Source: an uncultured Alphaproteobacteria bacterium
Lineage (GTDB): Bacteria > Pseudomonadota > Alphaproteobacteria > HIMB59 > GCA-002718135
Assembly (NCBI GenBank): GCA_902593125.1
Contig: CACJGU010000002.1
Span: forward strand, 4,808 to 68,807
Direction of reading: 5' to 3'
DNA: 64,000 nucleotides
The notes under the pieces were generated by a model, which had not been told where the DNA came from, did not search any database, and was given only the letters and a program-made list of their open reading frames with translations. The translations under genes were made by a program, and so were the position numbers. Positions 31,220-46,846 of the stretch are shown here, piece by piece (position 1 is the first letter of the stretch; every line of letters starts with the position of its first letter).

Positions 31220-31250
31220 TTAGTATTTTAACAAATTTTAATATATATAT

Positions 31251-32162: not shown

Positions 32163-32296
32163 AATTTTTGTAGTTCAATGAATTTATCAATTAATAATAT
32201 ATTTTTATATTTCTTATTAACCTCGTACCAAATAAGGAATTATTGAACACGAAGTGCAACTATATTACAACCAAAAGAGGTAAGGGGGTGAAAATT

Positions 32297-32346
32297 TGGA
32301 GCGGGCGAAGGGATTCGAACCCTCGACTTCAACCTTGGCAAGGTTG
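32297..32346 (-). repeat. Perfect copy of the 3' 50 nt of tRNA-Gly (att core)
   Basis: 50/50 identical to 42470-42519; diverges at 32347. Confidence 0.95.
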
Positions 32347-32402
32347 GGGTTAAGTGCTGATTAAGCCCCGCATATAAACAATTTCTCCCACATATTTCTC
32401 TT

Positions 32403-32420
32403 TGTCACAACTGTGTCACA
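32403..32420 (+). promoter_or_regulatory. Arm doublet, TGTCACA class (module B, int-proximal arm)
   Basis: TGTCACAACTGTGTCACA, copies 11 nt apart. Ends immediately before the int RBS AGGAG (32421-32425). Confidence 0.6.
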
Positions 32421-32432
32421 AGGAGATATGAA

Positions 32433-33377
32433 ATGGCAACAATACGAAGAAGAAATGGTAAATGGCAAATCCAAATAAGGATAAGAAATTATGGAGCTAC
32501 AAGTAAAACATTTATTAATAAAAAAGATGCATTGCAATGGGGAAGAGAGAAAGAGATAGAACTTCAAAGATGTGCTATAAAATATAAACCACAAAAATAT
32601 CCACTAACAAGAAAACTAATTGAAAAATATATTAATAATATTTCTATAAAAAAGAGAGGTTATGAATTTGAGAAGTATTGTTTTAATAATTGCTTAAGAG
32701 CTTCTTTTTCTAACTTGCCTGTAAATCAGATTTCAACCAAACACTTATCTGAATATAGAGATTTAAGATTAAAAAAAGTTAAGGCATCTACATTTCTAAG
32801 AGAACTAAATTTAATTAGACATTTCTTTAATATTTTAAAAAGAGAATGGGGTTATGAAATTGATAATCCTTGTAACAATTTAACCAAACCAAAAGTTTTT
32901 CAAAAAAGGGAAAGAAGATTAACTGAATATGAATATAATTATTTAGTTAAAGGAAACTATTCTCAGAACACTCTTAGAAATATAATTGAGATAGCAATTG
33001 AAACTGGGATGAGACGTGGTGAAATTTTAAATATAAAAAAAGAACATATCAAAACAGATACGCTATTAATACCCATAACAAAAAACGGTCATCAAAGAAT
33101 AATTCCTCTTACTGAGAGAGCTATATATATTTTAAATAAATCAAAACTTCCTTTTTCTATGTCTGTAAATGCAGTCAGACTAGCTTGGGAAAGGTTAAAA
33201 AATAAAGCTAACATTAAAGACTTACATTTTCATGATTTACGCCATGAAGCTATCTCAAGGTTCTTTGAAAAAGGATTAAGTATTCCCGAAGTAGCCTTAA
33301 TTTCTGGACATAAGGATGTGAGAATGCTTTTTAGATATACTCATCTCAAAGCAGAAGATATATTGAAGAAGTTATGA
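32433..33377 (+). CDS. Tyrosine site-specific integrase
   Basis: Catalytic signature GMRRGE ... HFHDLRHEAIS ... GHKDVRMLFRYTHL (R, HxxR, H, Y). The N-terminal RRRNGKWQIQIRIRNYGATSKTF resembles small beta-sheet arm-binding domains. Confidence 0.92.
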   Translation: MATIRRRNGKWQIQIRIRNYGATSKTFINKKDALQWGREKEIELQRCAIKYKPQKYPLTRKLIEKYINNISIKKRGYEFEKYCFNNCLRASFSNLPVNQISTKHLSEYRDLRLKKVKASTFLRELNLIRHFFNILKREWGYEIDNPCNNLTKPKVFQKRERRLTEYEYNYLVKGNYSQNTLRNIIEIAIETGMRRGEILNIKKEHIKTDTLLIPITKNGHQRIIPLTERAIYILNKSKLPFSMSVNAVRLAWERLKNKANIKDLHFHDLRHEAISRFFEKGLSIPEVALISGHKDVRMLFRYTHLKAEDILKKL

Positions 33378-33458
33378 GGAAATTTTTGTCATTAATGATT
33401 TGTTTGTATAAAGTTAATTTAAGAAATTAATATATTCTTTTAAGTAAAATTTAATTAA

Positions 33459-36020
33459 CTAACCTAAAATTTTTCTAATATCTTTTTCCCACTCATCTTG
33501 GAACAGAAGTTTAAACACAACTTGTTCTTTTCCTTTAACTTTCAAATGTCCAATATTTTCAATATTTTCAATATTTTCAAAAAAACATTTGTTTATTAAG
33601 TCAAATAGCTTTTCTTTATATAAAGTATCATCATTTTTTAAAAAATTACCCTTAGTCTCTATAAAAAATATCTTTGATTTGTTATTATTATTCATTTTTA
33701 ATAAAAAATCCGGATAAATTTTGTTAGCTCTCCATCCTTTAATTGAATAATCCTCATTATTTACAGATAATCTATGCCACCATTTTATAGCTTTACTTTT
33801 ATTAATATAAGAAGCTACGAGATATTCATAATTATTATAATTTGATTTATATTGAGGTTGATAAATATTTTTATTAAAATTTAATGGATATTCATCATGA
33901 TTTTTTAAAGTAGTAAGATTCTCAACAAGGGTCCAATTGAATTTATAAAATTTTTTTTCTAATAATTTAAAATTTATAATCTTTTTTTCAATTTTTTTTC
34001 TAAATATTTTTTCAGACTCTTTTAGAAACCATTTGTAAAAATCATTCTTGATGACATTAACAATAAAAACTGAGTTTTTATTTATTGTTTCTTCATTAAT
34101 ATAATTAACTTTTAAATTATTAATAACTTCATAAATTATTCTACTTGCTTGCCATGGGTTATGCACTTTATCAATTAATTGACTTGCCATTAGAGAAATT
34201 TCAAAATCTTTATCAATGTTTTTATCTTGTAATGTTTTTTGACTAAAAAAATCAAAATCTGATTTTCCTTTAATATCAGATTTCAAATCAATTTTAATAA
34301 AGGAATCTTCAGGGTTGTGATTTGATAAATTCAATTCATTAAAATTTTTAAAAGAATAATTATCTATTTTTATATCAGGAAGAATGTCTCGATAATAATC
34401 AAATTCTCTAACTTTATTGTAATAATTTACTGTTAATTTTGGAATTATTATTGATTTTTTGTATTCATTACTTAATTTCTGAACAACCCTTTTTTTAATA
34501 TTAGCTTCTCCGTTAATTAAATTAATATTATCATCAATGTCATTTAAGCCTTCTTCCTCTAAACCTTTTTTAACACCTAAAATAGCCTCTCCAACATCCA
34601 CTGAATTACAATATACATAGCTTTCATTTAATTCTTTAATTTTATATCTTTGTGCATAAGGTTGTCTCAATATTCTTCCAACAAATTGAGTTAAAGATGT
34701 TTGATTTTTAGTTTTTGATAATATTGCTAAAACGTAAGCAAATGGACAATCCCATCCTTCTTTAAGAGCATCTTTGGTAATTATATATTTAACATTAGAT
34801 GTTTTGCTAAGCAAATTAAGATTTGAAATTTCATTAATTTCTGAAAGTTTAATTTTAATTTCATCTTCATTAATATTTAAATTTTGAAGTAAATATTTTT
34901 TTACATCTTCAACATGATTATAGGTGCTCTGTTGTTTTTTAGTTTCAACTTTAATAAGCAATATTGGTCTTATATAAGTATTATTAATTTTATATAATTT
35001 TTCTGCTGATTTGTTTAATTCACGTATTTTTTTTACTGAATGATTCAAAGTATTTTTCCAATTTGATTCTTCATAAGTACGCAGATTAATAGGCAGCTTA
35101 ATCATCTCTTCATTTTTTAATGAGACACCACTAATTTCAGATATAACATTGCTTAAATTGGAAGGGGTTGCTGATAGCTCTAATATAAATGAGGGATTAA
35201 AGTTGTTTATTGTTTCTGTAGCTAAATTACTTTTTGCCCTATGTCCTTCATCAATAATAACTATCGGTCTAATTAATTTGAATACATTTCCAACTGAATG
35301 CTTAATATTTAATCCTTTAACAACATCTATGTTATTTAAATCTGTCAAATCTCCTACATCCAAGTTTGTTATTTCATCTATTAATTTTTTATTGGCAAGA
35401 TAGTCGTCTTCAATTGGAAAAAAACTTGTATGTGAACTCGAGTCTCTAAATAGTTTTAAAAATTCTTTTGTTTTTCTGTTACTAGACTGCATCATTAGAA
35501 TCATTATACACAAATTCTTTTCAACATCTTCTTTCGTAAAAGAATCTGTTTTCTCAAGAATTATTGTTTTCCCCCCACTAACTCTGTCAACTACTTGTCT
35601 GTATGCATGTTCTTTGTTTCTTAAATTAATTAATGTTTGTGAATAAATAGACTCACTTGGAACAAGCCATAATATAAATCCATTATTTTTTTTAAAATAA
35701 TCTTGGTTAATAAATTTAATTGAATGTAATGCTAAATAAGTTTTGCCTCCTCCAGTAGGTACTTTGAAACATATATTGGGAATTTTTCTTTTTATACCAT
35801 CACTTCTATTTTTATATTCAATGGTTTTTACAGGAATTTTAGATTTTAAGTTTTCCCAAGCTTGACTGCAATAATCACTTTTTTCTGGGTGGATGGGTGT
35901 TTTATTTTTTTTAATTTGAAAATTGTAATAATCAAACTGTTCATCTTTTATTGTTGCTAATTCTTTTAAAAAAAAGTCCAAATCATTTAATATATTATTT
36001 TGATAATCTTTAATTTCCAT
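33459..36020 (-). CDS. res: Type III restriction enzyme, Res subunit (SF2 helicase plus PD-(D/E)xK nuclease)
   Basis: Helicase motifs VPTGGGKT, IIDEGHRA, ELSATP and QFVGRILRQ. C-terminal nuclease motif YPDF...FFIETKG. The start abuts the mod stop. Confidence 0.88.
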   Translation of the reverse strand: MEIKDYQNNILNDLDFFLKELATIKDEQFDYYNFQIKKNKTPIHPEKSDYCSQAWENLKSKIPVKTIEYKNRSDGIKRKIPNICFKVPTGGGKTYLALHSIKFINQDYFKKNNGFILWLVPSESIYSQTLINLRNKEHAYRQVVDRVSGGKTIILEKTDSFTKEDVEKNLCIMILMMQSSNRKTKEFLKLFRDSSSHTSFFPIEDDYLANKKLIDEITNLDVGDLTDLNNIDVVKGLNIKHSVGNVFKLIRPIVIIDEGHRAKSNLATETINNFNPSFILELSATPSNLSNVISEISGVSLKNEEMIKLPINLRTYEESNWKNTLNHSVKKIRELNKSAEKLYKINNTYIRPILLIKVETKKQQSTYNHVEDVKKYLLQNLNINEDEIKIKLSEINEISNLNLLSKTSNVKYIITKDALKEGWDCPFAYVLAILSKTKNQTSLTQFVGRILRQPYAQRYKIKELNESYVYCNSVDVGEAILGVKKGLEEEGLNDIDDNINLINGEANIKKRVVQKLSNEYKKSIIIPKLTVNYYNKVREFDYYRDILPDIKIDNYSFKNFNELNLSNHNPEDSFIKIDLKSDIKGKSDFDFFSQKTLQDKNIDKDFEISLMASQLIDKVHNPWQASRIIYEVINNLKVNYINEETINKNSVFIVNVIKNDFYKWFLKESEKIFRKKIEKKIINFKLLEKKFYKFNWTLVENLTTLKNHDEYPLNFNKNIYQPQYKSNYNNYEYLVASYINKSKAIKWWHRLSVNNEDYSIKGWRANKIYPDFLLKMNNNNKSKIFFIETKGNFLKNDDTLYKEKLFDLINKCFFENIENIENIGHLKVKGKEQVVFKLLFQDEWEKDIRKILG

Positions 36021-37721
36021 TTATTTAACAAAAACTTTATGTATGGCATATGGAAGTTGACAAAAAATTATATTAAATTCATCTAGTTGTTTTTGTGACA
36101 TAAATTTTGAAGTTGCAAAAACTAATTTTTTCAATTTACTACTATTTTTTATAATTTCAGCTTTTTCATAACTTAATGCTGAGTCATTACTTCTTAAGAA
36201 TGTAATATCTGGTTTGTATATTAAAAAAATTTCATAAAAATTTGTTTTTCCAATAAAATATTTTTGTTGATTCTTTACTGATTTTTCCAAAGAAACTCCA
36301 GTTGCAGTATAGAAAACATATCTTGATAATGATTCATAAGATGGAAGATTATTTCCTCTCAGAATTGAGTCTATATTAAATTCTTTACCTAACTTAAAAT
36401 AGGAAAAGCTTTTATTGTAGCCTTTTTTAAGAATCTTATTTTTTGCAGAAGGGACCCCTTTGTTAATTAATCTTACTCTTTCAGCAGTAAGATTATTTGC
36501 ATAATCTTCCATTTCTACAAGAATATATTTTCTATTACCGTTATCTTCATGATTTAAATCCATAACCGCGTGAGCTGTGGTTCCACTACCAGCAAAAGAA
36601 TCAAGAATTATATCGTTTGATTGATTTCTAGTAGATATTCTGAGACATTTTTTAATTAAATCTATAGATTTTGGGTAATCAAAAGGCATGTGTCCAAATA
36701 TTTCAGATAATAACTCTTTACCATTCTCATTGTTAATGGATTTGTCAGTCCATAAAGCTTTTTCTTTGGTTGTTGCTAAACTAGAATTCTTATATAAATA
36801 ATCTTTTCTGAAAACTCTCCAATTACCTGTGCTAGCGTATTTTGCGAATAACAAAGAAGAGTTTTTTAAAACTTTTTCCTGACCCCAAGTCCAACAACCT
36901 TCTTCACCTTTAGAGTTTAGAGGCAAGATAGGAATATTAAATTCTTTATTTTTTTTCAAAGATATTTGATTATTTTTTTTATTTACATAAATTGGGAAAA
37001 ATAAATTGGGTCTATTTTTCCTATTAAAAACTGGATTTCTGTTTCTTAGTTCCAAAGGTCGATATTTACCTTTTTTATCTTCATACTTATAATCGGATTG
37101 TTGAGTTTCATTTTTTTCAACTTCAAATAAACTACTATTATTTATATCTTTAACATAAGTTAATACATACTCGTGAGTTTTTGCCAAAAATTTATCTAAT
37201 GTTCTTCCTCTAGGATTTAATTGCACTGTAATCTGAGAGACAAAATTGTATTCTCCAAATATTTCATCCATTAACAATCTTAAATTTGCTATTTCATTGT
37301 CATCAATTGAAATAAATATTGCACCATCATCTGATAAAAGTTCATGCAATAACTTTATGCGTGGGTACATCATGCAAAGCCATTTATCATGTCTTTCTAA
37401 ATCTTCTCTATCTACTGGATTAGCACTATTTTTTAACCACTCTCTTATCAATGGCGAATTTACATTATCATTATAACACCAACCTTCATTTCCTGTATTA
37501 TATGGAGGGTCAATATAAATACATTTAATTCTACCTGAATAATTTGGAAGCAAAGCTTTTAATCCATGAAGATTATCTCCTTCAATAATCAAATTGTCTT
37601 CAATTTTAGTTTCTTTATTTTTTGGAAATGATTTTTTTTTATCTACAACCAATTCTCTAAAAGGAAGTACATAGTGATGAGAACTAATAAATTGTTTACC
37701 TTTAAAATCAATTTTTGGCAT
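36021..37721 (-). CDS. mod: Type III DNA methyltransferase, Mod subunit (beta-class N6A/N4C)
   Basis: Motif IV IYIDPPYNTG lies about 300 aa N-terminal of motif I DSFAGSGTTAHA, the order typical of Type III Mod. Confidence 0.9.
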   Translation of the reverse strand: MPKIDFKGKQFISSHHYVLPFRELVVDKKKSFPKNKETKIEDNLIIEGDNLHGLKALLPNYSGRIKCIYIDPPYNTGNEGWCYNDNVNSPLIREWLKNSANPVDREDLERHDKWLCMMYPRIKLLHELLSDDGAIFISIDDNEIANLRLLMDEIFGEYNFVSQITVQLNPRGRTLDKFLAKTHEYVLTYVKDINNSSLFEVEKNETQQSDYKYEDKKGKYRPLELRNRNPVFNRKNRPNLFFPIYVNKKNNQISLKKNKEFNIPILPLNSKGEEGCWTWGQEKVLKNSSLLFAKYASTGNWRVFRKDYLYKNSSLATTKEKALWTDKSINNENGKELLSEIFGHMPFDYPKSIDLIKKCLRISTRNQSNDIILDSFAGSGTTAHAVMDLNHEDNGNRKYILVEMEDYANNLTAERVRLINKGVPSAKNKILKKGYNKSFSYFKLGKEFNIDSILRGNNLPSYESLSRYVFYTATGVSLEKSVKNQQKYFIGKTNFYEIFLIYKPDITFLRSNDSALSYEKAEIIKNSSKLKKLVFATSKFMSQKQLDEFNIIFCQLPYAIHKVFVK

Positions 37722-37757
37722 AATGAATTTAAACTTAATATAATTTAATTATTAATA

Positions 37758-38003
37758 TCAATAATTATAATGAAATTTCTTATATTTTAACAGCCATTCC
37801 TTTTTAGCTTCTTTATAAGTAATACCATCCCATCTCTCTCCAAGATGAGAAGGGATATATTCATCACAATTTGCACAATGTATTTGTTGAAGTACATAGG
37901 ACCATGGACTTGAGGCTTCACCAGTAACGCTCCAATCTGTTGATACGCAAAGATTGCCAGCAACCTCAGTTGCACCGCATTCTGGACATTTGAAAGAATT
38001 CAT
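37758..38003 (-). CDS. Small zinc-ribbon protein, unknown function
   Basis: 81 aa with CPEC ... CANC. Lies 36 nt upstream of mod on the same strand and looks visibly G+C-richer than mod/res. Confidence 0.55.
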   Translation of the reverse strand: MNSFKCPECGATEVAGNLCVSTDWSVTGEASSPWSYVLQQIHCANCDEYIPSHLGERWDGITYKEAKKEWLLKYKKFHYNY

Positions 38004-38232
38004 TTTTTCTCCTTTAGCTACTTGTTTTATGTCCCGGCAATTAGAGTATCTAAATCAGGACAATTACATAATATCATAATAAGTATTTTTAACAATCTTG
38101 ATAAGACCATAATTCGTGCTTATATTAATACTGTAAGGCTACTATTGATATTCGAAGTTCTCATTATTTTTCTACTTTTAAAAATTACCTCCGCCTTACT
38201 CAAAAAAATCAAAACAGTAACAGAAAGGACCA

Positions 38233-38703
38233 ATGGGCGACCTACTAAACTTTAACGACCACATTGATAAAACACAAAACAAACGACGATATCTTGGCTA
38301 TGAAAAAGGAAAAGTCTTAGAAGAAACCATCAAAGGACTCATAGCAAAAATACCTGATATACCTGATGAAACCATTATCAACTACTTTGCCAACATAGTT
38401 AAAGGGGGAATTCCTGTGATAGATGATAAACCTTTTCATACAAAATATGTCTGGGCAGAAAACTGTCTAAAGTATTCATCCGAAGAAATTCAAGAAGCAG
38501 CAACTTCTTATATGTTTAAAAACAAAAACAACCATAAATTATTGTACCATCTTTCCCTGCTTATTTATCTCTCTCTTTATTTCTTTGATAAAGATGTAAA
38601 ATCTTTTTATAGGATTGCTCCTCAAGATTATGAAAAATGGGGAATTAGACTTCTTGATAAAAGTATAGAATTTAAAAACAACGTTAGGGATGGGAGTTTT
38701 TAG
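38233..38703 (+). CDS. Hypothetical protein (156 aa)
   Basis: ATG preceded by GAAAGGA. No recognisable motif. One hydrophobic stretch (LLYHLSLLIYLSLYFF). Confidence 0.55.
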   Translation: MGDLLNFNDHIDKTQNKRRYLGYEKGKVLEETIKGLIAKIPDIPDETIINYFANIVKGGIPVIDDKPFHTKYVWAENCLKYSSEEIQEAATSYMFKNKNNHKLLYHLSLLIYLSLYFFDKDVKSFYRIAPQDYEKWGIRLLDKSIEFKNNVRDGSF

Positions 38704-38770
38704 GTTAACTCATGGGTTTATTGAGGTATATTTTCATTTATAAGCATTTGATATAGAAATTATACGAATA

Positions 38771-38808
38771 AGTTATCCACGTTATAAAAAGTTATTAACG
38801 CTATAAAA
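38771..38808 (+). repeat. Tandem 19-bp direct repeat upstream of the 102-aa gene
   Basis: AGTTATCCACGTTATAAAA / AGTTATTAACGCTATAAAA (16/19 identical). Confidence 0.7.
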
Positions 38809-38906
38809 TAGATTCAAAAAATGTGCGTTGAAGAAGTTCTCCTCATCATCATATTAGATAAATAAATCGTTAATGATTTTTTTTATCTGCAACCAAAGGA
38901 GATTAT

Positions 38907-39215
38907 ATGCAGAAAGAGATTAATACAAACTCTCTACATTACAAAATGCAAGATTGTTTTGATATCGTTTGGAATACTGGCGATGAAATAGAGCGTGATT
39001 GGAGTGTTCAAATAGCAACCAGTATGTTCATGGAATACTGTGAAGAATTAGAGTACGTTTCACTGACAGATTCTGCTCACTTGTATTCAGAATTAACAGG
39101 TATTTTTTCTACCGATACACCATGGTCATTTACAAGATATTATTGTTATCAATTCTTAGAGAATTACAAAAAAATAGTAGATGGAAATGAACCAATAAAC
39201 TCAACATTGCATTAA
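38907..39215 (+). CDS. Small strongly acidic protein (102 aa), unknown function
   Basis: RBS AAGGAG lies 6 nt upstream of the ATG. About 17 D/E against about 6 K/R by count. Confidence 0.6.
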   Translation: MQKEINTNSLHYKMQDCFDIVWNTGDEIERDWSVQIATSMFMEYCEELEYVSLTDSAHLYSELTGIFSTDTPWSFTRYYCYQFLENYKKIVDGNEPINSTLH

Positions 39216-39221
39216 ATAATT

Positions 39222-39237
39222 GGGGGCTTAGGCCCCC
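39222..39237. terminator. GC-rich hairpin between convergent genes (bidirectional terminator candidate)
   Basis: GGGGGC-TTAG-GCCCCC lies between stop 39215 (+) and stop 39241 (-). Such a G/C run is exceptional in this AT-rich window. Confidence 0.6.
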
Positions 39238-39240
39238 TTC

Positions 39241-40071
39241 TCACATCTTTGCTGCTTGTTCAATATAGGCACAATTCTCACAATACGGATTTCTATGAGG
39301 TGCTTTGCTAGAATCCAAAACTGATTTCATTTCTAAAATTTTTTCTTTTATCCAACTTGTATTGGTTTCATAATCAACAAGGGTAATAGCAAAATCCATT
39401 TTTGCATCAAATCTATCTGGTGATTTTTCTCCATTGCAAACCATAAAATAGGAAATATCTGAAACTTTAAACCCCATCTCTCTTAAAATATATACGTATA
39501 TATCCATCTGCATTTTATAACCTTGATGGTATTGGCTCGATAAGTAATATTCTTTTTCAACTGCTATTTTTGTTGATTGTGCTTTATAGTCAGCAACAAC
39601 TAATTCCTGTGTATCAAGATTAAACCAGATATCATCTACACCTCCATGAAGTATTAAATTAGTTTCTTTATCATGATAAGAAATTCCACCCGTTAGTGAA
39701 TTTCTCCATTTATCGATATCGTCATGCTCAAAAGGAATAAAATTTAAATTATAATTTCTAAAAATAGGGTGTGCTTCTTTTCGAGCTCTATAATAATCAA
39801 ATTCTTTTTTTAACAAATCATCAACAGTAGTATTAAGAGACCATCCAGGCATACTAGGCTCTTGTAATCCCCTTACTCTATCTAGGTAAAAACATCTTTG
39901 ACAATCCATAAAGTTTGAAAATTTAGAACGACTAATTTTAAATTCATTCTTTTGTCCAGGTTTGTATATTGAAGTAGGTCTTGTTCGTAGACCTTTAGCC
40001 TCTGCAAATTCACCTTTTGAGTTTCTTTTAATACTTACCATCTCTAATTGACTATACCACCATTTACCCAA
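39241..40071 (-). CDS. PD-(D/E)xK nuclease, Cas4/RecB-like, with four Cys (probable Fe-S cluster)
   Basis: GGVDD ... VVADYKA (D...D-x-K) and QMDIYVY (QxxxY) motifs. Cys pairs CQRC (N-terminal) and CENC (C-terminal). The start is uncertain (TTG 40071 or internal ATG 40041). Confidence 0.7.
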   Translation of the reverse strand: MGKWWYSQLEMVSIKRNSKGEFAEAKGLRTRPTSIYKPGQKNEFKISRSKFSNFMDCQRCFYLDRVRGLQEPSMPGWSLNTTVDDLLKKEFDYYRARKEAHPIFRNYNLNFIPFEHDDIDKWRNSLTGGISYHDKETNLILHGGVDDIWFNLDTQELVVADYKAQSTKIAVEKEYYLSSQYHQGYKMQMDIYVYILREMGFKVSDISYFMVCNGEKSPDRFDAKMDFAITLVDYETNTSWIKEKILEMKSVLDSSKAPHRNPYCENCAYIEQAAKM

Positions 40072-40102
40072 AGGTTAAGTGGGTTATTTTTACTAGTCTG
40101 AA

Positions 40103-40612
40103 CTAAGCTGATTTATTAAAACCAAATTGTCTCTGAATTTCATCCATTGTCATTTCTTTTTTTATACTCGTATTAAAAGTTGATTCAATAGACTCCCAAA
40201 TACCATCTCTTGGTCGTTGAATGTGTGTTACATTGCTTACTGTTTTCCCTTTTTCGCTGGTCTTTTGTTTTACACGAATAAATGTTTTCGTATAAAATAA
40301 CTCCTCTGGATGTGGAATTTCTGAAAGAGATTTAATTGGGTCGTATTTTTCCTTACTTATTAAAGCTCTTGTAACTTTGACAATTTTACTCTTTGAGCTC
40401 TTCATTTTTGAATTATTACAAACAGCTACTGCAAACATTGGATTGTCTTCTTCGTCCAGTATTGGCTCATTTGTATTCAAATCAAGAATAGCAAATTTAA
40501 ATACCATTCTTTGTCCTAGAGGAAATCTTTCAAGGTCTAGACTAATTAAGACAGAAAAGTATTCTCCATCTGGTGTGTTATTACCGTAATGATTTAATTG
40601 AAATAATCGCAT
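40103..40612 (-). CDS. Hypothetical protein (169 aa), upstream partner of the nuclease
   Basis: ATG with GGAGAA upstream. Same strand as the nuclease gene and 31 nt upstream of it. No recognisable motif. Confidence 0.55.
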   Translation of the reverse strand: MRLFQLNHYGNNTPDGEYFSVLISLDLERFPLGQRMVFKFAILDLNTNEPILDEEDNPMFAVAVCNNSKMKSSKSKIVKVTRALISKEKYDPIKSLSEIPHPEELFYTKTFIRVKQKTSEKGKTVSNVTHIQRPRDGIWESIESTFNTSIKKEMTMDEIQRQFGFNKSA

Positions 40613-40821
40613 TGTTAAACGTTCTCCAAGTTGAGTTTGTATACTGATAATTATGAGAATAAATTAAAAGTAAGTCGCTTAACAAACTTTAGTTATATTT
40701 AATTATATATATCACATATTCTTAAAAACTATGAATGTTATTTATTATTTTTATTAAATATTTATTACCTGTGTACCTAGTGTTGTAGTTAATAATCTAT
40801 AAAGAAATAATATAAAAAGAT

Positions 40822-40927
40822 AATAAGGTAATAATGCATAAGGGTAATAAATAAGAAATTTAATAAGGTAAAATTTTAGTAATCTATAATGGTATAAATC
40901 TATTAATGTACTAAGGTAATAAGGTGG
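40822..40927 (+). repeat. Iteron-like array of TAAGGTAA(T)AA motifs
   Basis: Copies at 40824, 40839 (extra G), 40864, 40888 (TAATGGTATAA), 40912 and 40920. The GG cores at 40843, 40867, 40891 and 40915 are exactly 24 nt apart. An inverted copy TTATTACCT lies at 40762-40770. Confidence 0.7.
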
Positions 40928-41061
40928 TTCTTAGTGCCTGTTTTATATAGAATTTGGGCCGCCTTAACACCTTGTAAACATAGTATCTTGTGGAATTAAG
41001 CACCCTGCTCATGTTATAAAATAAGACATGCGAGAATTTGTAACATTATTAGGTCTTAATG

Positions 41062-41358
41062 TTATTCATAAACATCATTTTTAGAGTAATATAATTCATC
41101 GTTAATTATAAACTCTGGGTCATTATCTTCAAATCTCTCAACAAAAAGATTATCACACTCACAACATACATAGGTATAATTGTAATCTCTTTTATTTACT
41201 TTCTTTAAGTTAACCAATCTTCGAAACTCTTGTTCATCTGGATTTCTAAGATAGTGAGATTGACATTCTGGACAGTGTACACCTGAGTAATAGTCATAAT
41301 GTTCTTTGACGTGCTTTCGGGCTCTTAATTTTAGTTTTTGTTTTTGATAGTTGTGCAT
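41062..41358 (-). CDS. Small zinc-ribbon protein (98 aa), unknown function
   Basis: CPEC ... CCEC, with a basic N-terminus and an acidic C-terminus. No obvious RBS. Confidence 0.5.
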   Translation of the reverse strand: MHNYQKQKLKLRARKHVKEHYDYYSGVHCPECQSHYLRNPDEQEFRRLVNLKKVNKRDYNYTYVCCECDNLFVERFEDNDPEFIINDELYYSKNDVYE

Positions 41359-41520
41359 ATAAATTATTTTGCAATTACAATATTAAAAATGAATAATCAA
41401 GAAAAGCAAATCCTAATAATAATTGCCTCCTCATATTTAATAAAAATAAAAAATAATTAAATTTGTAGTTTCCACTGTAAACCAGATACTCAAGCACGTT
41501 GCGAGGTATATATATACCCT

Positions 41521-41589
41521 ACCCCCATAGGACCCCTGCACTACCCCTTTTGGAAACAACATTTTTTATTGTGTCACACTCTTGTCACA
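41521..41589 (+). promoter_or_regulatory. Module B tRNA-proximal arm: three 11-nt-phased ACCCC repeats plus a TGTCACA doublet
   Basis: ACCCC at 41521, 41532 and 41543. TGTCACA at 41572-41578 and 41583-41589. The core repeat starts at 41658. Confidence 0.6.
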
Positions 41590-41657
41590 ACAAGATTATA
41601 AATATAAAAAACTTTTAAAAAACTTAACAGACAAAAGAGAGAGTTTGTGGGGTTTAT

Positions 41658-41708
41658 TGGAGCGGGCGAAGGGATTCGAACCCTCGACTTCAACCTTGGC
41701 AAGGTTGC
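41658..41708 (-). repeat. Perfect copy of the 3' 51 nt of tRNA-Gly (att core)
   Basis: 51/51 identical to 42470-42520. Confidence 0.95.
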
Positions 41709-41775
41709 CATGTACAATTGAGATTAGGTATTTAAACAGTTTTCTGACTTTAATATGATTGTTTATATCTTGAAC

Positions 41776-41794
41776 TGTCGGAGAAGTGTCGGAG
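41776..41794 (+). promoter_or_regulatory. Arm doublet, TGTCGGA class (module A, tRNA-distal arm)
   Basis: TGTCGGAGAAGTGTCGGAG, copies 11 nt apart, 68 nt inside the core. Confidence 0.55.
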
Positions 41795-41803
41795 GAAAAT
41801 ATT

Positions 41804-42337
41804 TTATCTTGGATAACGAATTGGACAAATCGCAGTTGACCTTACAGTAATTGCTTTAGGTCCACCTACTTCATTATTATAAGTACAAACTTTCGTGAGC
41901 CCAGTAACGTTATGTGTGTGACTGATTGGACATATTGCAGTTGATCTAACTGTTAAAGCTGAAGGTCCTGACGGTCCATTATAATAACAAACTTTTGTAA
42001 GCCCTACATTTGTTGATAGGTTTGTTGTGTTTGAGTAGGTTGGTTGTTGACTCATTGCTGTTCCCATATTTATTAAAGCTTGATTTAATCTTTTTTTTCG
42101 AAGACCTGCTGCAATATAAGGTGAGCAGTCTATTCCTCTTCTTTGGATAGAATCCTCTCTATAGCCTTGATTGATATTATAATCTGGCAGAGCATAATAA
42201 CTAGTACATATTTTTTTTGCTGATTGTGAGTCATAATATCTAGCTGCTTCTTGTGGAGACATGCAAGATTGTAGAATTATTAAACTTACTAAAACCGTTA
42301 TGGTTTTTGAAATTATACTTAAAGAATAAAAATTCAT
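41804..42337 (-). CDS. Putative lipoprotein with a tandem internal Cys-containing repeat
   Basis: Signal peptide ending ILQSC (lipobox-like). Two about 30-aa units: GLTKVCYYNGPSGPSALTVRSTAICPI and GLTKVCTYNNEVGGPKAITVRSTAICPI. Confidence 0.65.
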   Translation of the reverse strand: MNFYSLSIISKTITVLVSLIILQSCMSPQEAARYYDSQSAKKICTSYYALPDYNINQGYREDSIQRRGIDCSPYIAAGLRKKRLNQALINMGTAMSQQPTYSNTTNLSTNVGLTKVCYYNGPSGPSALTVRSTAICPISHTHNVTGLTKVCTYNNEVGGPKAITVRSTAICPIRYPR

Positions 42338-42428
42338 TATTAGACAATATTTTATTATGAAAAATTGTTAAAACTTTAATTTAAGAAATGATCAAATATT
42401 GTGGAAATTAAAAAAGCTATACCGATAT

Positions 42429-42447
42429 TGTCGGAGAAATGTCGGAA
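42429..42447 (+). promoter_or_regulatory. Arm doublet, TGTCGGA class (module A, tRNA-proximal arm)
   Basis: TGTCGGAGAAATGTCGGAA, copies 11 nt apart, 23 nt from the tRNA 3' end. Confidence 0.55.
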
Positions 42448-42469
42448 AAATTAAGAAAATTATAATTTT

Positions 42470-42544
42470 TGGAGCGGGCGAAGGGATTCGAACCCTCGAC
42501 TTCAACCTTGGCAAGGTTGCGCTCTACCCCTGAGCTACGCCCGC
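42470..42544 (-). tRNA. tRNA-Gly (anticodon GCC)
   Basis: 75-nt cloverleaf on the minus strand: GCGGGCG acceptor, GCTC/GAGC D-stem, anticodon loop TTGCCAA, T-loop TTCGAAT, encoded CCA. Confidence 0.95.
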
Positions 42545-42597
42545 TTAATTTACACAATTACCATTTTGAATTTATAAGTCAATATTTGAGAAAATAT

Positions 42598-43416
42598 TCA
42601 TTCAAATCTTTTTCTATAAACAATATCAACAAGCAGCATATGAGGAAGGGTTAAAGCGGCAAGTCCAATGAAGATTACTTTTAATATTGACTCATATAAT
42701 GATAAATTTTGAACCAAATAGTAAACAATTGCTAGACCGCCTATCCAAGAAATTGCTGTAAAAATAAATGTAGTGTAAATAACAAATTTTTTATTTGTTA
42801 AATTTAAATAAATATTTTTAATCAAATGCTTAAGATGTTTATAAGTATGAAAAAAACAAAAATATATTGCAAAGCTTAGAAGTGGATCAAATATATAAAA
42901 AATAAACAAAAGAAAAAAAATTTCTATAATACCTTTGCGTAATTTTTTTTCAAAAAATGAAAGGTAAATAAAATATACTATAGATAGTAATGTGAATAAA
43001 TATGGGACAAAAAAATATTTTTGAATCAAATAAATTTTATCATTAGTCAAATATTCAAATATCATAAATGATTCATTTTCATTAAAAAATATAATTCCAA
43101 AGATAATAGTCATTCCATGAGTAAAACTTACAGAATACTTGTAATTATTTATTTTATAATTTGTCCAATCACATAATCCAAAGTGGATAATAGTCATTAT
43201 AATAAAAATAGTTAGGGTAATAATTGGAAGGTTTAACCAAAATATTATGACTAAGAAAAATAAGGTGAGATAATAAAATATAAATTTTGCAAATTGAATT
43301 TTGTTTCTAAAACCGACTAATGAAGCAACAGCGCCATCAAATGAACCATGTGGAAGACCAATAAAAAAAATTAGTAAAAAAGAAATGATATTTAAGGTTG
43401 TAAGTTCGGCTAACAT
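42598..43416 (-). CDS. blh: Beta-carotene 15,15'-dioxygenase (Brp/Blh family)
   Basis: Multi-TM protein with conserved His motifs (GLPHGSFDG, FFHTYKHL, LPHMLL). Last gene of the crt operon. Confidence 0.85.
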   Translation of the reverse strand: MLAELTTLNIISFLLIFFIGLPHGSFDGAVASLVGFRNKIQFAKFIFYYLTLFFLVIIFWLNLPIITLTIFIIMTIIHFGLCDWTNYKINNYKYSVSFTHGMTIIFGIIFFNENESFMIFEYLTNDKIYLIQKYFFVPYLFTLLSIVYFIYLSFFEKKLRKGIIEIFFLLFIFYIFDPLLSFAIYFCFFHTYKHLKHLIKNIYLNLTNKKFVIYTTFIFTAISWIGGLAIVYYLVQNLSLYESILKVIFIGLAALTLPHMLLVDIVYRKRFE

Positions 43417-43417
43417 A

Positions 43418-44500
43418 TTATTTAAAAACTTCTTTTAGGAATTGTAACTTAGGCATACTTTTAATAATTTTTAACTTAGTTAATAAATTAGACTCTCCCA
43501 TCATAAAACTTTGAAATTCATCACCATTTAAATTAGATGCAAGCTTAATAAAAGACTGGCCTTTTTCAGTATTATTTTTCAGAAAGTTAATAAATATTTT
43601 ATCCATTTTTCTTTCTAAAAATTTATGAATATTTACATAATTTTTTTTTGAGTTTTTCAAAAGTTGAATTTGTTTTATAAGAAAAGAAAAGGCATAACCA
43701 GTTGATGGTTTACAAGCCCCTCCTCTAATTCCAATATTGAAAATATTAGAATAAGGTGATTTTTTTTCTTCTGAAAAAAACATTGGTATTATTCCTCTTT
43801 CTGTTGCATTTTCTTCATATTCAATAATATTCTTTAGCTTTAGATAACGATTTATTTTTTCTCTATACCAGGAACTATGAAAAGTCTCTTTTGAAAATAC
43901 GGTCGATTCAACTAGGGCTTTGTTATGACTGAATGGTAGGACATATATAAAATGTAAAACATTATTTTCTTCTGTAAAATACATTAAAGTTAATTTTTTT
44001 TCGTCAAACGTATTGTCTGCTACTGTAATATTAATTCCAAAAAAATGTTGAATTAATTCACCTTTTTTTTCTTTTACTGATCTTGAATCATATATTTTTT
44101 CAGCATAATATTCTTTGTTATCAGCTGTAATTATTTTAAAATAATTTTTTAAAGGAAGATATTGAACAACTTTTTTATTTTTTATTTCTAATTTATTTTT
44201 AGTTTCTAAGCAGTATCTTTTCCAATTTTTAAAGCTGATAACGCAATAAGGCTTATTACTAACACTGTGTGTTACATTAGTGTTTTTATCTCCAATGTTC
44301 CATTTATACCATTTTTTTTCAATAATATTTTCAAAAGACCTCATCCAATCTGTTAACCAAAACCCAAAAAAATTATCTCTATTTTTTACATCACCATTTT
44401 CAAATGCAATTATTTCATAAGAGCTGTCACCGTAGAGAATTTTATTTACTGCTAGACCACTAGGGCCCAAACCAATTATTGCAGCTTTATAAATTTTCAT
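43418..44500 (-). CDS. crtY: Lycopene beta-cyclase
   Basis: N-terminal FAD motif IIGLGPSGLA. The size and its position between crtB and blh fit CrtY. Confidence 0.8.
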   Translation of the reverse strand: MKIYKAAIIGLGPSGLAVNKILYGDSSYEIIAFENGDVKNRDNFFGFWLTDWMRSFENIIEKKWYKWNIGDKNTNVTHSVSNKPYCVISFKNWKRYCLETKNKLEIKNKKVVQYLPLKNYFKIITADNKEYYAEKIYDSRSVKEKKGELIQHFFGINITVADNTFDEKKLTLMYFTEENNVLHFIYVLPFSHNKALVESTVFSKETFHSSWYREKINRYLKLKNIIEYEENATERGIIPMFFSEEKKSPYSNIFNIGIRGGACKPSTGYAFSFLIKQIQLLKNSKKNYVNIHKFLERKMDKIFINFLKNNTEKGQSFIKLASNLNGDEFQSFMMGESNLLTKLKIIKSMPKLQFLKEVFK

Positions 44501-45368
44501 TTGGAAAACTGTTTCTTATTTTTTGATATTTATAATTTATTAAGGGAATAAAAATAAAAATTGAAATTGATTTTATTGTAATTACAATTTTTTCAAATGT
44601 GTTTAAATATACTCTGTCTTTATTATATTTTTTTTTCTTTAATCTTATCTTGATACCAATACCCCTATAAACATTAGCTGCTATAAATATTCCAAGTCTT
44701 GTAGATAGCGGTATGTATTTTAAACCAGCAAATCCATTTTCATAAAATTTTTCTGATAAGCTTATTACTTTTTCAATTGCATTTAATATTTTTGTATTTT
44801 TTTCTGAGCTTAATTTCTCAAAATTATTTAGGTTATCGAGTGATATATCAGGTATCCAATTAGCAGGTAAATAAATTCTTTTCATTTTTGAATCTTCATA
44901 GACATCACGTGCTATATTTGTTAGCTGCATTCCAATACCTAAATCTATTGCGGATTGTGCTGCTTTTTCACTTTTTACTCCTATAATTTTAGACATCATT
45001 AATCCAACAGTTCCAGCAACATGATAAGAATATATGATAAGCTCTTGTTTATTTTTAATTTTAATATTTCTCTGATCTAAAATTAACCCCTCAATTAAAT
45101 CAATAAAAATTAAATTATTTATTTTGTTTTTTTGCAGAAAAATATTTACCTTATGATTTTTATTACTCTTAATTTCTTCTATTGAGTCTTTAAGAAAACT
45201 AGTTTTATCTTTATCGTTTTTATCAGCAATATCATCAAAATATCTACAAATTGAATAAAGAATACCTGCGTTTTTTTTCGAACTTTTTGGTAAAAAAAAA
45301 CTAGCCCAATAAAAACTTTTACCTTCTTTTTTTAAGGCAGTTGTTGAATTGAGCTCTAAATTGATCAT
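44487..45368 (-). CDS. crtB: Phytoene synthase
   Basis: SFYWASFFLP, Asp-rich motifs YFDDIAD and ARDVYED. Confidence 0.9.
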   Translation of the reverse strand: MINLELNSTTALKKEGKSFYWASFFLPKSSKKNAGILYSICRYFDDIADKNDKDKTSFLKDSIEEIKSNKNHKVNIFLQKNKINNLIFIDLIEGLILDQRNIKIKNKQELIIYSYHVAGTVGLMMSKIIGVKSEKAAQSAIDLGIGMQLTNIARDVYEDSKMKRIYLPANWIPDISLDNLNNFEKLSSEKNTKILNAIEKVISLSEKFYENGFAGLKYIPLSTRLGIFIAANVYRGIGIKIRLKKKKYNKDRVYLNTFEKIVITIKSISIFIFIPLINYKYQKIRNSFPNENL

Positions 45369-46846
45369 TATTTTTTTAATTCAGCCTTAATTATGTTTTC
45401 AACAACTTTGGCTGAGGAGAGAACTCCTGGTATCCCTGCTCCTGGGTGAGAACCCGCAGCAGAAAAATAAAGATTTTTTATTTTTTTGTCTTTATTATGA
45501 TATCTGAACCAGGCTGATTGAGTAAAGATAGGGGCGATAGAAAATCCTGCTCCATGCATTGAATTGTAATCATTTTTAAAATCTTTAGGATTCATCCAAA
45601 ACACATCTGTTATATTCTTTTCTAAATCTGGCATGATAGTTTCTGATAGTTCTTTAACTATTCTATTTTTAAGATTTTCTGATTCAGTATCCCAATTAAT
45701 ATTCCCTTGTAAATTAGGCACAGGACATAATACATAAAAACTGTCACATCCTTCAGGAGCAAAAGATTTGTCTGTTGCAGTAGGTCTGTGAATATATAAA
45801 GAAAAATCTTCTGATAAAATCTTATTTTTAAAAATGTCATGAAGCAAAGATTTGAATCTTTCTGTCATCCAAATAGTATGGTGAGCAACTTTATGATATT
45901 GTTTTTTGGTTCCAAAAAAAAGCACGAAAAGGCCCATTGAATACAATAAATTTTTTTCCCTTAAAATAGGTCTGCTTAAATTTTGTTTTTTTAGAAGTTT
46001 AGAATAAACCATTGGTGGGTCAGCATTACAAACAACCAAATCTAAATCAGTAATTTCTTCCTTGTTTGTTAATATTTTTGTTATCGTGTTATTTTCTATA
46101 ATAAACTCTTTTGCTTCTGTATTGGTTTTGATTTTAATACCAGCATGAGTCATTAATTTTTTTAACTCAGATACAATTTTACCTGTTCCACCCATACAAA
46201 AAAATACCCCCCATTTTCTTTCTAAATAATGTATTAAGGCATAAATAGATGTCGTTGTATGTGGATCACCTCCGACTAGAAGTGGGTGTATTGAAAATGC
46301 CTTTCTAAGATATGGATTTTTTAAGTAACTGTTTACAAGTTGTGAAACAGTGAAATAGCTTTTTAAAATTATTAGGTTGGGAATAACGCCTAACATCTTA
46401 AAAAAAGAAATAAATGGTTTGTCTGCTAGTTGTGTAAAGCCAATATCAAAAATTTTTTTGGATTGATTTAAAAGTTTTGAGTAGCCTTTAACATCTCTTT
46501 CATCAAATTTACTTATTTCAATATTTGTTTTTTCTACAGTAGAACAGTAATCAAAAGTTTTTCCATCATGAAAATAGTATCTATACCAAGGCTCAAGAGG
46601 AACAAATTTTAGATGATCTTCTCTTCTTTGGCCAAATAAATCAAATAATTCATCAAAAAGAAACGGAGCTGTTATTACAGTGGGTCCAGCATCATGCCTA
46701 AAGCCATTAATTTCAAATACTCTCGCTCTTCCACCTAATTCATCAAGTTTCTCTATTATAGTTGTATCGTATCCCAGCTTTTTTAATCTAAGACTTACTG
46801 CAATTCCGCCAAAACCACTTCCTATAACTACTGCTTTTTTATTCAT
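45368..46846 (-). CDS. crtI: Phytoene desaturase
   Basis: VIGSGFGGIA dinucleotide-binding motif, LGGRA and a C-terminal GAGIPGV motif. Confidence 0.92.
   Translation of the reverse strand: MNKKAVVIGSGFGGIAVSLRLKKLGYDTTIIEKLDELGGRARVFEINGFRHDAGPTVITAPFLFDELFDLFGQRREDHLKFVPLEPWYRYYFHDGKTFDYCSTVEKTNIEISKFDERDVKGYSKLLNQSKKIFDIGFTQLADKPFISFFKMLGVIPNLIILKSYFTVSQLVNSYLKNPYLRKAFSIHPLLVGGDPHTTTSIYALIHYLERKWGVFFCMGGTGKIVSELKKLMTHAGIKIKTNTEAKEFIIENNTITKILTNKEEITDLDLVVCNADPPMVYSKLLKKQNLSRPILREKNLLYSMGLFVLFFGTKKQYHKVAHHTIWMTERFKSLLHDIFKNKILSEDFSLYIHRPTATDKSFAPEGCDSFYVLCPVPNLQGNINWDTESENLKNRIVKELSETIMPDLEKNITDVFWMNPKDFKNDYNSMHGAGFSIAPIFTQSAWFRYHNKDKKIKNLYFSAAGSHPGAGIPGVLSSAKVVENIIKAELKK

Follow-up and report, generated by a model that had tools for sequence, protein, structure and literature searches.

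Do six small genes that lie side by side next to a restriction-modification (R-M) system work together as one accessory system, or are they independent passengers of a mobile island? The question is raised by a block of genes at positions 37758-41358 in a 64,000-nucleotide stretch of contig CACJGU010000002.1, from an uncultured SAR11-type alphaproteobacterium. The whole stretch, which is ~27% GC, is called the window here, and all positions refer to it. A preliminary description had listed six open reading frames (ORFs) in the block, and all six were found again in place and on the same strands (Table 1). Five of them are called zn81, o156, o102, o169, and zn98 after their lengths of 81, 156, 102, 169, and 98 aa, and the sixth encodes a Cas4-like nuclease.

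The preliminary description had proposed that the six genes form one undescribed accessory, defence, or anti-defence system. The analysis reported here leads to a different answer. The block makes up the right-hand portion of a 9.3-kb element (32348-41656), and it probably consists of mosaic cargo plus one backbone module of a modular integrative element that uses tRNA-Gly(GCC). Because each gene occurs without the others in diverged relatives, where the distributions are independent, the six genes do not appear to be one system.

The element and its ends

At each end of the element stands a direct repeat of 51-52 nt that copies the 3' half of tRNA-Gly(GCC). The same attachment (att) repeat follows the integrase gene, int, in two related loci, L030 and L031. 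The att-proximal arm at the right end, including its repeat (41465-41708), was 94.7% identical in L031, 95.5% in a third locus, L063, and 89% in L030. The tRNA-Gly 3' half is present in five direct copies in the window, where none is expected by chance. Four of these are extra copies to the left of the tRNA gene, at 41672, 32311, 31004, and 29719, the last of them degenerate. Since the tRNA 3' half is repeated leftwards in this manner, the region represents a tandem array of islands at one tRNA gene. The array consists of four islands (29719-42544), and the 9.3-kb element is the largest unit.

The integrase reads inward and begins 86 nt inside the distal att repeat. Its nearest annotated relatives found are integrases of temperate phages (36-39% identity), and its 90% cluster contains proteins labelled Pelagibacteraceae by NCBI. 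Copies of int occupy the same position in L031 (92% identity), L063 (95%), and L030 (77%). The 64-kb window contains just two exact copies of TGTCACAAC, one per att-adjacent arm and each beside a near-copy. Such confinement to both att arms is the pattern expected of arm-type or regulatory sites, and the TGTCACA-containing TGTCACAAC repeats are therefore candidates for one or the other function of the integrase. The integrase, the tRNA-Gly att repeats, and the Type III Mod and Res recognised by PADLOC bear out the earlier placing of the block beside an R-M system on a mobile island.

On its right side tRNA-Gly is followed by carotenoid and retinal genes (42598-46846). This flank is syntenic in L030, L031, and L063 at 75-85% DNA identity and anchors the integration site in the core genome.

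Which genes travel together

Sixty-four related loci (L001-L064) were fetched, and every one was scored for nine element genes. Elements at the same site were present in three other SAR11-type single-cell genomes (L030, L031, and L063), with the tRNA-Gly flank syntenic. A genome scan with an o169 alignment pointed to the single-cell genomes AG-404-B13 and AG-891-K21, which carry the label uncultured Alphaproteobacteria and whose int genes are 77% and 92% identical. In both, o169 lies ~1.1 kb from the same tRNA-Gly and carotenoid flank, with an inward int and an att repeat at the far end. The L030 element is ~5 kb long and consists of a secreted ORF, the repeats, o169, small membrane ORFs, and int. 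The L031 element is ~11 kb long and has a secreted ORF, the repeats, o169, further ORFs, and a Type I R-M system adjoining int. These two elements share with the window exactly the att-proximal arm, the repeat array, o169, and int. The element is a modular mosaic with defined ends in which int, o169, and the repeats are linked.

The L063 element is 98.2% DNA-identical to window positions 38001-41049 and keeps o156, o102, the nuclease, and o169 in order. It differs from the window in its Type III R-M system, in a 68-aa ORF that replaces zn81, and in other ORFs that replace zn98. L063 and L064 come from other samples, with 98-99% DNA identity to the same region. L063 thus shows recent common descent with a swap of cargo at the edges, not a conserved system.

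One could imagine that the six genes nevertheless act as a unit, an as yet undescribed system for defence, anti-defence, or maintenance whose action supports or opposes the R-M system. They adjoin R-M genes on a mobile island, the nuclease family is found elsewhere beside Ssp and Dnd clusters and helicases, o156 is found beside defence-type genes, and four of the six genes are together in L063 and L064. However, co-occurrence is seen only in DNA that is 98-99% identical, and the genes are separate in diverged relatives. Separate promoters, a terminator between genes, and alternating strands also argue against a single system, as do the lack of a convincing PADLOC match for the five orphans and the retention of o169 alone in L030 and L031. 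A single system is therefore very unlikely. The preliminary description had held that its proposal would fall if the gene set never co-occurred in other genomes, and this is nearly what was found, the sole co-occurrence being that of four genes in the 98.2%-identical L063.

A narrower alternative is that o169 and the nuclease form a two-component recombination module that aids recombination or replication of the element, as phage exo/SSB (single-stranded DNA-binding protein) or DUF2800/DUF2815 pairs do. In both the window and L063 the nuclease and o169 are neighbours that share a strand, with a gap of 31-61 nt. The RecB-type active site of the nuclease is intact, and the predicted oligonucleotide/oligosaccharide-binding (OB) fold of o169 resembles that of phage SSBs that partner recombinases (PMC5928155). 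Comparison of gene neighbourhoods, which had been suggested for this pair, showed that the pairing is not kept in diverged loci. The nuclease is absent from about ten loci with o169 at 62-96% identity wherever the downstream sequence suffices to judge, and also from ~30 loci with a distant o169; unrelated ORFs follow the diverged o169 copies. Conversely, o169 was found in none of the 10 nuclease loci, and neither was any other gene of the block. The nuclease also has its own promoter, forms a cassette with o102, and at 78-82% identity is a chromosomal gene on its own. It is unlikely that the two genes form such a module.

The gene o156 is conserved and has 85 close homologues, and none of the 11 o156 loci contains o102, the nuclease, or o169. 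Its neighbours vary, being a 219/222-aa ORF with an ADP-ribosylglycohydrolase, a 361-aa ORF, defence-type genes, or a convergent zn81, and the downstream neighbours diverge between loci beyond 18 nt at its stop codon. The AlphaFold2 (AF2) model of o156 is confident and helical, with a predicted local distance difference test (pLDDT) score of 86. No analogue of this fold was found in the Protein Data Bank (PDB); the best match, the antiterminator Q21, had an E-value of 1.7 and was not significant.

Several other properties ascribed to the block can be stated more precisely. That most of its proteins lack a named family held true, as five of the six have no match at the curated cut-offs of Pfam or NCBIfam and none that is convincing in PHROGs or PADLOC. 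Against PADLOC-DB 2.0 the five orphans gave no match except LmuB at 0.025 for zn98. The zinc-ribbon labels of the 81- and 98-aa proteins are justified by their cysteines (6, 9, 43, and 46 in zn81; 29, 32, 65/66, and 68 in zn98), and the acidic label of o102 by its isoelectric point (pI). The claim that the block is compositionally distinct is weakly true. Its GC content is 0.305, compared with 0.273 for the window and 0.252 for the stretch of int and R-M genes, and GC at third codon positions is 0.19-0.27 in the block and 0.15-0.17 in int, res, and mod. Among 3.6-kb windows, 14% equal or exceed the block in GC content.

A predicted SSB-like protein next to a phased repeat array

What does the backbone gene o169 encode? 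The nuclease had been thought to be the only protein of the block with a recognisable fold, and this was not borne out, since the confident model of o169 matches OB-fold, SSB-like proteins. The AF2 model (pLDDT 80, predicted TM-score 0.73) matched PrgE of plasmid pCF10 (PDB 8s4t) in Foldseek with an E-value of 6e-4 and a probability of 1.0, followed by bacterial SSBs. A search of BFVD gave 36 matches at E<=1e-3, of which at least 10 are named DUF669 or phage SSB. DUF669 proteins are highly diverged OB-fold SSBs related to the N4 SSB (PMC4889955), and the DUF669 member of HK620 is an experimentally proven SSB (PMC5928155). On the basis of these structural matches and the DUF669 literature, o169 can be read with moderate confidence as a divergent SSB-like OB-fold protein that probably binds single-stranded DNA (ssDNA).

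Relatives of o169 numbered 21 in a word-indexed search and 61 cluster representatives in an exhaustive profile search. Close homologues share a conserved acidic-hydrophobic C-terminal motif (...TMEEIxxxxGY/F). Many homologues are 230-320 aa long and carry C-terminal extensions, some acidic, for which no Pfam match was found. Of 43 family members, one matches DUF669 (PF05037) at 6.7e-4, and one matches phrog_378 (SSB) at 0.078. The family profile found nothing in the PDB, and a tblastn search of 72,556 plasmids with o169 found no match.

Upstream of o169 lies an array of CCTTATTACCTT-type motifs with a start-to-start spacing of 24 nt, and three of the six exact TAAGGTAA sites of the 64-kb window fall within 96 nt there. 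An AT-rich stretch (40640-40790), which is not conserved in relatives, separates the array from o169. At least three phased direct repeats and an AT-rich region, features expected of an iteron origin, are present at 40640-40930. All 11 informative relatives at >=62% identity have the array upstream of o169, at a distance of 180-450 nt, and L016, L034, and L035 have one extra unit of ~24 nt. The adjacent non-coding block, TTCCACAAGATACTATGTTTACAAGGT.GTAAGGCGGCC, is kept down to 72% o169 identity and is not found in the 65% group. In the distant elements L051, L052, and L056 the CCTTATTACCTT 12-mer occurs as a pair, and several distant elements have two CCTTATTA(C/T/A)CTT sites ~100 nt apart upstream of the operon. 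The possibility that the ~24-nt array provides the arm-type sites of the integrase was considered and dropped, as separate TGTCACA repeats flank the att core; the array also lies 730-830 nt from the att core with a gene in between.

Further evidence for the linkage of int and o169 comes from loci outside the tRNA-Gly site. The integrase gene is present in 17 of the 41 fetched loci that carry o169. On about a dozen contigs, o169 homologues of 33-38% identity lie 1-2 kb from int homologues of 25-37% identity (L011, L013, L041, L043, L045, L046, L052, and L055-L058). One of these, L052 (FUFK010041181.1, 1-11835), is made up entirely of a 4,311-nt unit repeated head to tail 2.75 times, with 99.4-99.7% identity between the copies, and it has no chromosomal flank. 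The unit contains a tRNA-Arg(cct), two CCTTATTACCTT sites, a 174-aa ORF, an o169-like gene, two further ORFs, and int. The simplest explanation is that L052 represents a minimal element in circular or concatemeric form. In distant elements o169-like genes are preceded by a 174-aa ORF, which is unrelated to o169.

In L011-L014 (contigs of ~11 kb with a tRNA-Arg(cct) beside int), the o169-like gene is preceded by a 166-aa ORF. These contigs also carry DUF2130, HNH/endonuclease-VII-like, and weak GIY-YIG and uracil-DNA glycosylase (UDG)-like ORFs and a 494-aa orphan, and nearly all of their ORFs are unannotatable; the orphans gave weak nuclease or UDG hints only.

These observations suggest how the element may work. 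Its backbone consists of an inward int at one end, att arms with TGTCACA repeats, and, at the other end, the CCTTATTACCTT array, the AT-rich stretch, and o169. Type III R-M, zn81 with its leader, o156, the o102/nuclease cassette, and zn98 are exchangeable cargo. Int would excise and integrate the element at the tRNA 3' half, and o169 together with the array would help to maintain or replicate the circle after excision, or handle its ssDNA in another way. Phage defence may come from the R-M cargo, which may also stabilise the element by addiction. Related islands may swap cassettes through recombination at short intergenic elements that are conserved. A bolder and quite tentative proposal is that minimal elements (~4-11 kb) of SAR11-type and other low-GC marine bacteria form a family not described before, of which int, a DUF669-like protein, and phased CCTTATTACCTT repeats are the defining features. 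The SSB-like protein would then take the place of a Rep, helicase, or primase: it would bind the repeats and so enable the circle to replicate or persist after excision. R-M systems and small cassettes would be shuttled between tRNA islands.

It is also conceivable that o169 is no SSB or replication factor but a sequence-specific regulator or a recombination-directionality factor, which would govern its own promoter or excision by binding the CCTTATTACCTT repeats, in which case the array is an operator and not an origin. Consistent with this, the array is always upstream of the o169 operon, at a distance that increases to ~1 kb in distant relatives, and no Rep, helicase, or primase is present. 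PrgE binds double-stranded DNA (dsDNA) as well as ssDNA, and the N4 SSB also activates transcription; both activities would suit a regulator. The PrgE entry matched by Foldseek (8s4t) is titled 'DNA bound structure of PrgE', a title that does not state the kind of DNA. On the other hand, six to nine phased copies in variable number beside AT-rich DNA are more typical of origins or centromere-like sites, and the few-gene head-to-tail multimer of L052, which has no chromosomal flank, suggests autonomous copies. A purely regulatory role of o169 and the array thus seems rather doubtful.

Another explanation holds that the block is the remnant of a decayed prophage or of a phage satellite resembling phage-inducible chromosomal islands (PICIs), which has lost its structural or packaging genes. 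The phage-type integrase, the similarity of the o169 fold to phage SSBs, and decayed int remnants in the related islands L016, L022, and L059 could be taken to indicate such an origin. However, a tblastn search of 50,697 phage records with o169, o156, the nuclease, zn98, and o102 gave no match, and the alignments of o169 and o156 found no relative among 2.9 million IMG/VR contigs. PHROGs gave no match to a capsid, terminase, regulator, or primase, and intact relatives of 4.3-5 kb have the same minimal gene set. A phage remnant is therefore extremely unlikely.

Returning to the modular integrative element, several points weigh against it or against parts of it. An excised circle or an empty attB was not observed for this particular element, and Pfam and PHROGs detected no helicase, primase, polymerase, Rep, excisionase, relaxase, or packaging gene. 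The array may serve as an operator, and DnaA boxes are not enriched. With TM values of 0.37-0.49 the structural match of o169 is of moderate quality, and the o169 of the window has no Pfam match at E<=1. The repeated unit of L052 could reflect a true tandem array in a chromosome or a faulty assembly. L063 and L064 have four of the block's genes together; given how recent these copies are, a functional link between the four is possible. Finally, most related contigs are short, and some absence calls rest on limited flanks.

Cargo cassettes and their probable joints

Three structured non-coding regions (a tandem 19-mer, a GC hairpin, and the iteron-like array) had been described as flanking the block. 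The three regions exist, but within the block, in the spaces between its genes. The tandem 19-mer is operator-like. A DnaA box within it was considered and rejected because the DnaA-box-like TTATCCACG is not enriched over chance. The GGGGGCTTAGGCCCCC hairpin is the sole terminator-like site in 37600-41800 and lies between the convergent o102 and nuclease genes, for which it is a predicted common bidirectional terminator. The 90% cluster of o102 has 34 members, and o102 was seen only together with the nuclease, in near-identical copies (L063 and L064).

The nuclease had been reported as a protein of 276 aa, and its gene is present with a length that was over-called. All 120 of the homologues listed are ~266 aa long, with the alignment starting at residue 11, and a promoter match with a TG-extended -10 element (40051-40078) lies inside the extension that begins at TTG. 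The nuclease is therefore most likely encoded by 39241-40041, with 266 aa, and the TTG start is most likely an over-call. Its leader would be a few nucleotides at most, given the position of the promoter.

The nuclease matches Pfam PDDEXK_1 (PF12705; 8.6e-11, 42.7 bits, cut-off 22) and Cas_Cas4 (PF01930; 2e-5, 25.1 bits, cut-off 22.7). Residues D136/D137, D151-x-K153, and Q178/Y182 and cysteines 47, 50, 254, and 257 are invariant in 14 diverse homologues, and with these RecB-type motifs and cysteines in place the enzyme is probably active. Against the NCBIfam cas4 equivalog it scored 25.7 bits, below the cut-off of 65, and the island contains no cas genes or CRISPR arrays. The nuclease is Cas4-like, not Cas4. 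A sequence search of the PDB found nothing.

The nuclease has 3089 homologues, belongs to a large marine family, and is abundant in SAR11 as a stand-alone gene. At 78% identity it is a lone gene in L001-L006 (for example L001 8001-8801; 17 contigs), in a housekeeping neighbourhood with a fatty-acid hydroxylase (FA_hydroxylase) gene on one side and DUF2141 and proline racemase genes on the other. At 82% (L008-L010) it adjoins an Ssp-type phosphorothioation cluster, and at 64% (L007) a helicase and Dnd-type phosphorothioation genes. It may be a common chromosomal gene of some SAR11 lineages.

How did the o102/nuclease cassette come to lie between o156 and o169? The answer may lie in an intergenic element of ~75 nt, ATACCACC..CCCCAAAGGTTAAGAGGGTTATTTTTAGGTTAACACATGGGTTTATTGGGGGTATAGT, that has a GGTTAAC core inside a CCCCCAA...TTGGGGG inverted repeat and reads as two back-to-back promoters. 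It is intact between divergent genes in L018 (4456-4555) and L030 (7220-7283) and near-complete in L022 (2127-2194). L018 has a second copy without the left end (2475-2523), and L020 likewise has only the right part (2473-2528). In the window the two halves, which are contiguous in L018 and L030, enclose 38734-40044 with o102, the hairpin, and the convergent nuclease gene. Judging from this layout, o102 and the nuclease appear to be a separable, self-contained convergent cassette. From the split promoter halves and the breakpoint at the o156 stop codon we infer that short conserved regulatory elements are joints of cassette exchange. An integron-like attC reading of the ~75-nt element was rejected, since a back-to-back promoter fits better and no IntI is present.

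The R-M slot, the zn81 leader, and the zn98 slot

The adjacent Mod methyltransferase and Res helicase-nuclease identify the R-M system as Type III, and Mod is the sole member of its 90% cluster. The slot has different contents elsewhere: a Type I system in L031, another Type III system in L063, and no R-M in L030. The Type III system of L063 is in the opposite orientation, and its Mod and Res are 34% and 28% identical to those of the window.

Next to the R-M genes, zn81 is a recurrent small cargo gene whose 90% cluster has 177 members. With the same leader it is also found in a small tRNA-Phe island with an integrase remnant (L059-L062), without R-M or o156, and in L026-L028 it lies downstream of o156 in convergent orientation. 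The leader is a candidate riboswitch resembling the S-adenosylmethionine (SAM)-II class. In the window it matches RF00521 at 27.2 bits, below the gathering score of 36, and the best relative scores 29.7. The aptamer-like ~60 nt are near-invariant in five to six other loci (20.7-29.7 bits), while the ORFs below differ (zn81, 59 aa, or 68 aa). A variant resembling SAM-V in L019 scores 28.9 bits, below its gathering score of 41. A P1 helix (UGUCC/GGACA) and a loop-to-3' pairing (UUUAG/CUAAA) can be drawn by eye. Five leader copies are nearly identical in the aptamer, so there is no covariation to read. The leader, zn81, and, after 36 nt, the SAM-dependent mod-res genes follow one another on the same strand.

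The slot of zn98 is filled by a 170-186-aa secreted protein in L015, L016, L030, and L031 and by 87-aa and 243-aa ORFs in L063. The arrangement of the window was seen again only in L017.

Neighbouring islands and feature coordinates

Besides the 9.3-kb element, the tandem array contains three mini-islands of 0.8-1.3 kb. One of them, of 760 nt (41709-42469), lies between the element and tRNA-Gly. The mini-islands have flank repeats in common, with TGTCGGAGAAGTGTCGGA at 31111, 41776, and 42429. Two ORFs of 58 and 61 aa (41582-41758 and 42469-42654), which contain ERAKGFEPSTSTLARL, were rejected as genes because they are translated tRNA-Gly and repeat sequence. The coordinates of all features are collected in Table 1.

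Table 1. Features of the element, its flanks, and related leaders (window positions unless a locus is named)
Feature	Position	Strand	Remarks
275-aa sulfotransferase-like ORF	29945-30772		Mini-island
303-aa ORF	31251-32162		Mini-island
Distal att repeat	32296-32347		Left element boundary; copy of tRNA-Gly 3' half, 51 nt identical to tRNA
TGTCACAAC / TGTCACAAG direct repeats	32403-32422	+	May be arm-type sites or an int operator; located between att and int
int, tyrosine integrase, 314 aa	32433-33377	+	Pfam Phage_integrase 5e-25, phrog_1 2e-53
res (Type III R-M)	33459-36020	-	PADLOC REase_III 2e-206
mod (Type III R-M)	36021-37721	-	PADLOC MTase_III 1e-155
zn81, 81-aa zinc ribbon	37758-38003	-	36 nt upstream of mod, same strand
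SAM-II-like leader (candidate)	37993-38071	-	Over zn81 ribosome-binding site and start codon; RF00521 full-length, below threshold
Leader copies	L059 6933-7010; L060 1-76; L061 197-274; L062 224-301; L021 597-675; L063 4841-4914
SAM-V-like variant	L019 969-1037		Equivalent position
o156, 156-aa orphan	38233-38703	+	Conserved, island-associated
Promoter element (~75 nt), right half	38697-38733	+	Holds o156 stop; TTAACT-16-TATATT faces o102
Tandem 19-mer AAGTTATCCACGTTATAAA x2	38767-38804	+	Weaker third copy at 38831; between promoter match and o102
o102, acidic 102-aa orphan	38907-39215	+	pI 4.35
GC hairpin GGGGGCTTAGGCCCCC	39222-39237		6 G-C pairs, 4-nt loop, T-rich tail
Cas4-like PD-(D/E)XK nuclease, 266 aa	39241-40041	-	From ATG at 40041 (most likely start)
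Promoter element, left half	40045-40092	-	TTAACC-16-TG-TATAGT; directly upstream of nuclease ATG
o169, 169 aa	40103-40612	-	Predicted divergent OB fold, DUF669/PrgE-like; element backbone gene
Iteron-like array	40790-40930 (about)	-	6-9 copies of CCTTATTACCTT-type motif, ~24-nt phase; upstream of o169
Conserved non-coding block TTCCACAAGATACTATGTTTACAAGGT.GTAAGGCGGCC	40935-41000	-	Beside array
zn98, 98-aa zinc ribbon	41062-41358	-	Variable slot between att arm and repeat array
att-proximal arm	41465-41656		Right element boundary
TGTCACAC/TGTCACAAC repeats	41572-41591		Right arm
att repeat	41657-41708		Right element boundary
177-aa lipoprotein-like ORF	41804-42337		Mini-island
tRNA-Gly(GCC), intact	42470-42544	-	Integration target
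blh-like (272 aa), lycopene cyclase-like (360 aa), crtB (293 aa), crtI (492 aa)	42598-46846		Directly past tRNA-Gly

Significance and comparison with known systems

No bacterial group in the ocean is more abundant than SAR11, whose genomic islands carry much strain-level variation, including R-M systems. To our knowledge, very few mobile elements have been recognised in SAR11, and no route by which its genes are exchanged is established. A site-specific element family with clear att sites and a two-gene backbone would be a concrete vehicle for this variation, and its R-M cargo is demonstrably swapped at the same site (Type III, another Type III, Type I, or none). The trio of int, the OB-fold protein, and the repeats is the most interesting and testable feature, with excision junctions, repeat binding, and SSB activity as its parts. 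The locus also gives a reason for caution, as a run of orphan ORFs beside an R-M system can be a mosaic of independently moving cassettes and not a system.

How do the parts of the element compare with what is known? Like members of the Cas4/RecB family, the nuclease scores above the cut-offs of PDDEXK_1 and Cas_Cas4 and has invariant D, DxK, and QxxxY motifs and four invariant cysteines. Unlike Cas4, its cysteines are arranged 2+2, with one CxxC near the N terminus and another at the C terminus, and it is a stand-alone 266-aa protein in varied contexts, including housekeeping ones, without a CRISPR locus. The zn81 leader shares with the SAM-II (RF00521) and SAM-V (RF01826) riboswitches of marine alphaproteobacteria the UGAUUU, UUGC, and GCUAAAG(GAG) segments and the placement at the Shine-Dalgarno sequence and start codon. 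It differs in that all copies score below the gathering scores of both classes and in that tiny orphan ORFs, followed in the window by Type III R-M, lie downstream in place of genes of methionine or SAM metabolism.

The o169 protein resembles DUF669/N4-type SSBs and PrgE in its predicted fold, in its core of ~150-170 aa, and in being encoded by a mobile element, and the acidic tails of longer homologues are a further likeness. It differs from them in that sequence similarity is essentially undetectable and in that the element carrying its gene is neither a phage nor a conjugative plasmid. The linkage to an integrase and phased dsDNA repeats is also not described for DUF669 or PrgE SSBs. The array in turn is like iteron plasmid origins and the origins of Staphylococcus aureus pathogenicity islands (SaPIs) and PICIs in its 6-9 direct repeats, its phase of about two helical turns, and its variable copy number. 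It further resembles iteron and SaPI origins in the adjoining AT-rich stretch and in its position next to the gene of a small element-encoded protein that may bind DNA. Unlike iteron origins, it is accompanied by no recognisable Rep, helicase, or primase, which leaves o169 as the only candidate binder. Packaging or capsid-redirection genes, a master repressor, and a primase-replicase, by which PICIs are recognised, were not found, the PHROGs matches being limited to the integrase and the nuclease.

As a whole, the element is most readily compared with the tycheposons and cryptic tRNA-targeting elements of Prochlorococcus (bioRxiv 10.1101/2020.12.28.424599). Like these, it integrates at a tRNA 3' end and leaves partial tRNA repeats, its islands accumulate in tandem at one tRNA, its size range is 4-11 kb, and its host is a streamlined marine bacterium. 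The layout, which L030, L031, and L063 have too, is likewise shared: an inward tyrosine recombinase and a small module occupy opposite ends, and cargo such as R-M lies between them. In the published elements the small module is optional. In contrast, the host is of SAR11 type, and the sole conserved gene besides the integrase encodes an OB-fold SSB-like protein next to a repeat array. No ORF of the element matched the tycheposon hallmark primase, helicase, polymerase, or excisionase in Pfam, PHROGs, or NCBIfam. Because these hallmark replication genes are absent, the element is described as tycheposon-like and is not assigned as a member. Elements related to tycheposons have been reported in Alphaproteobacteria.

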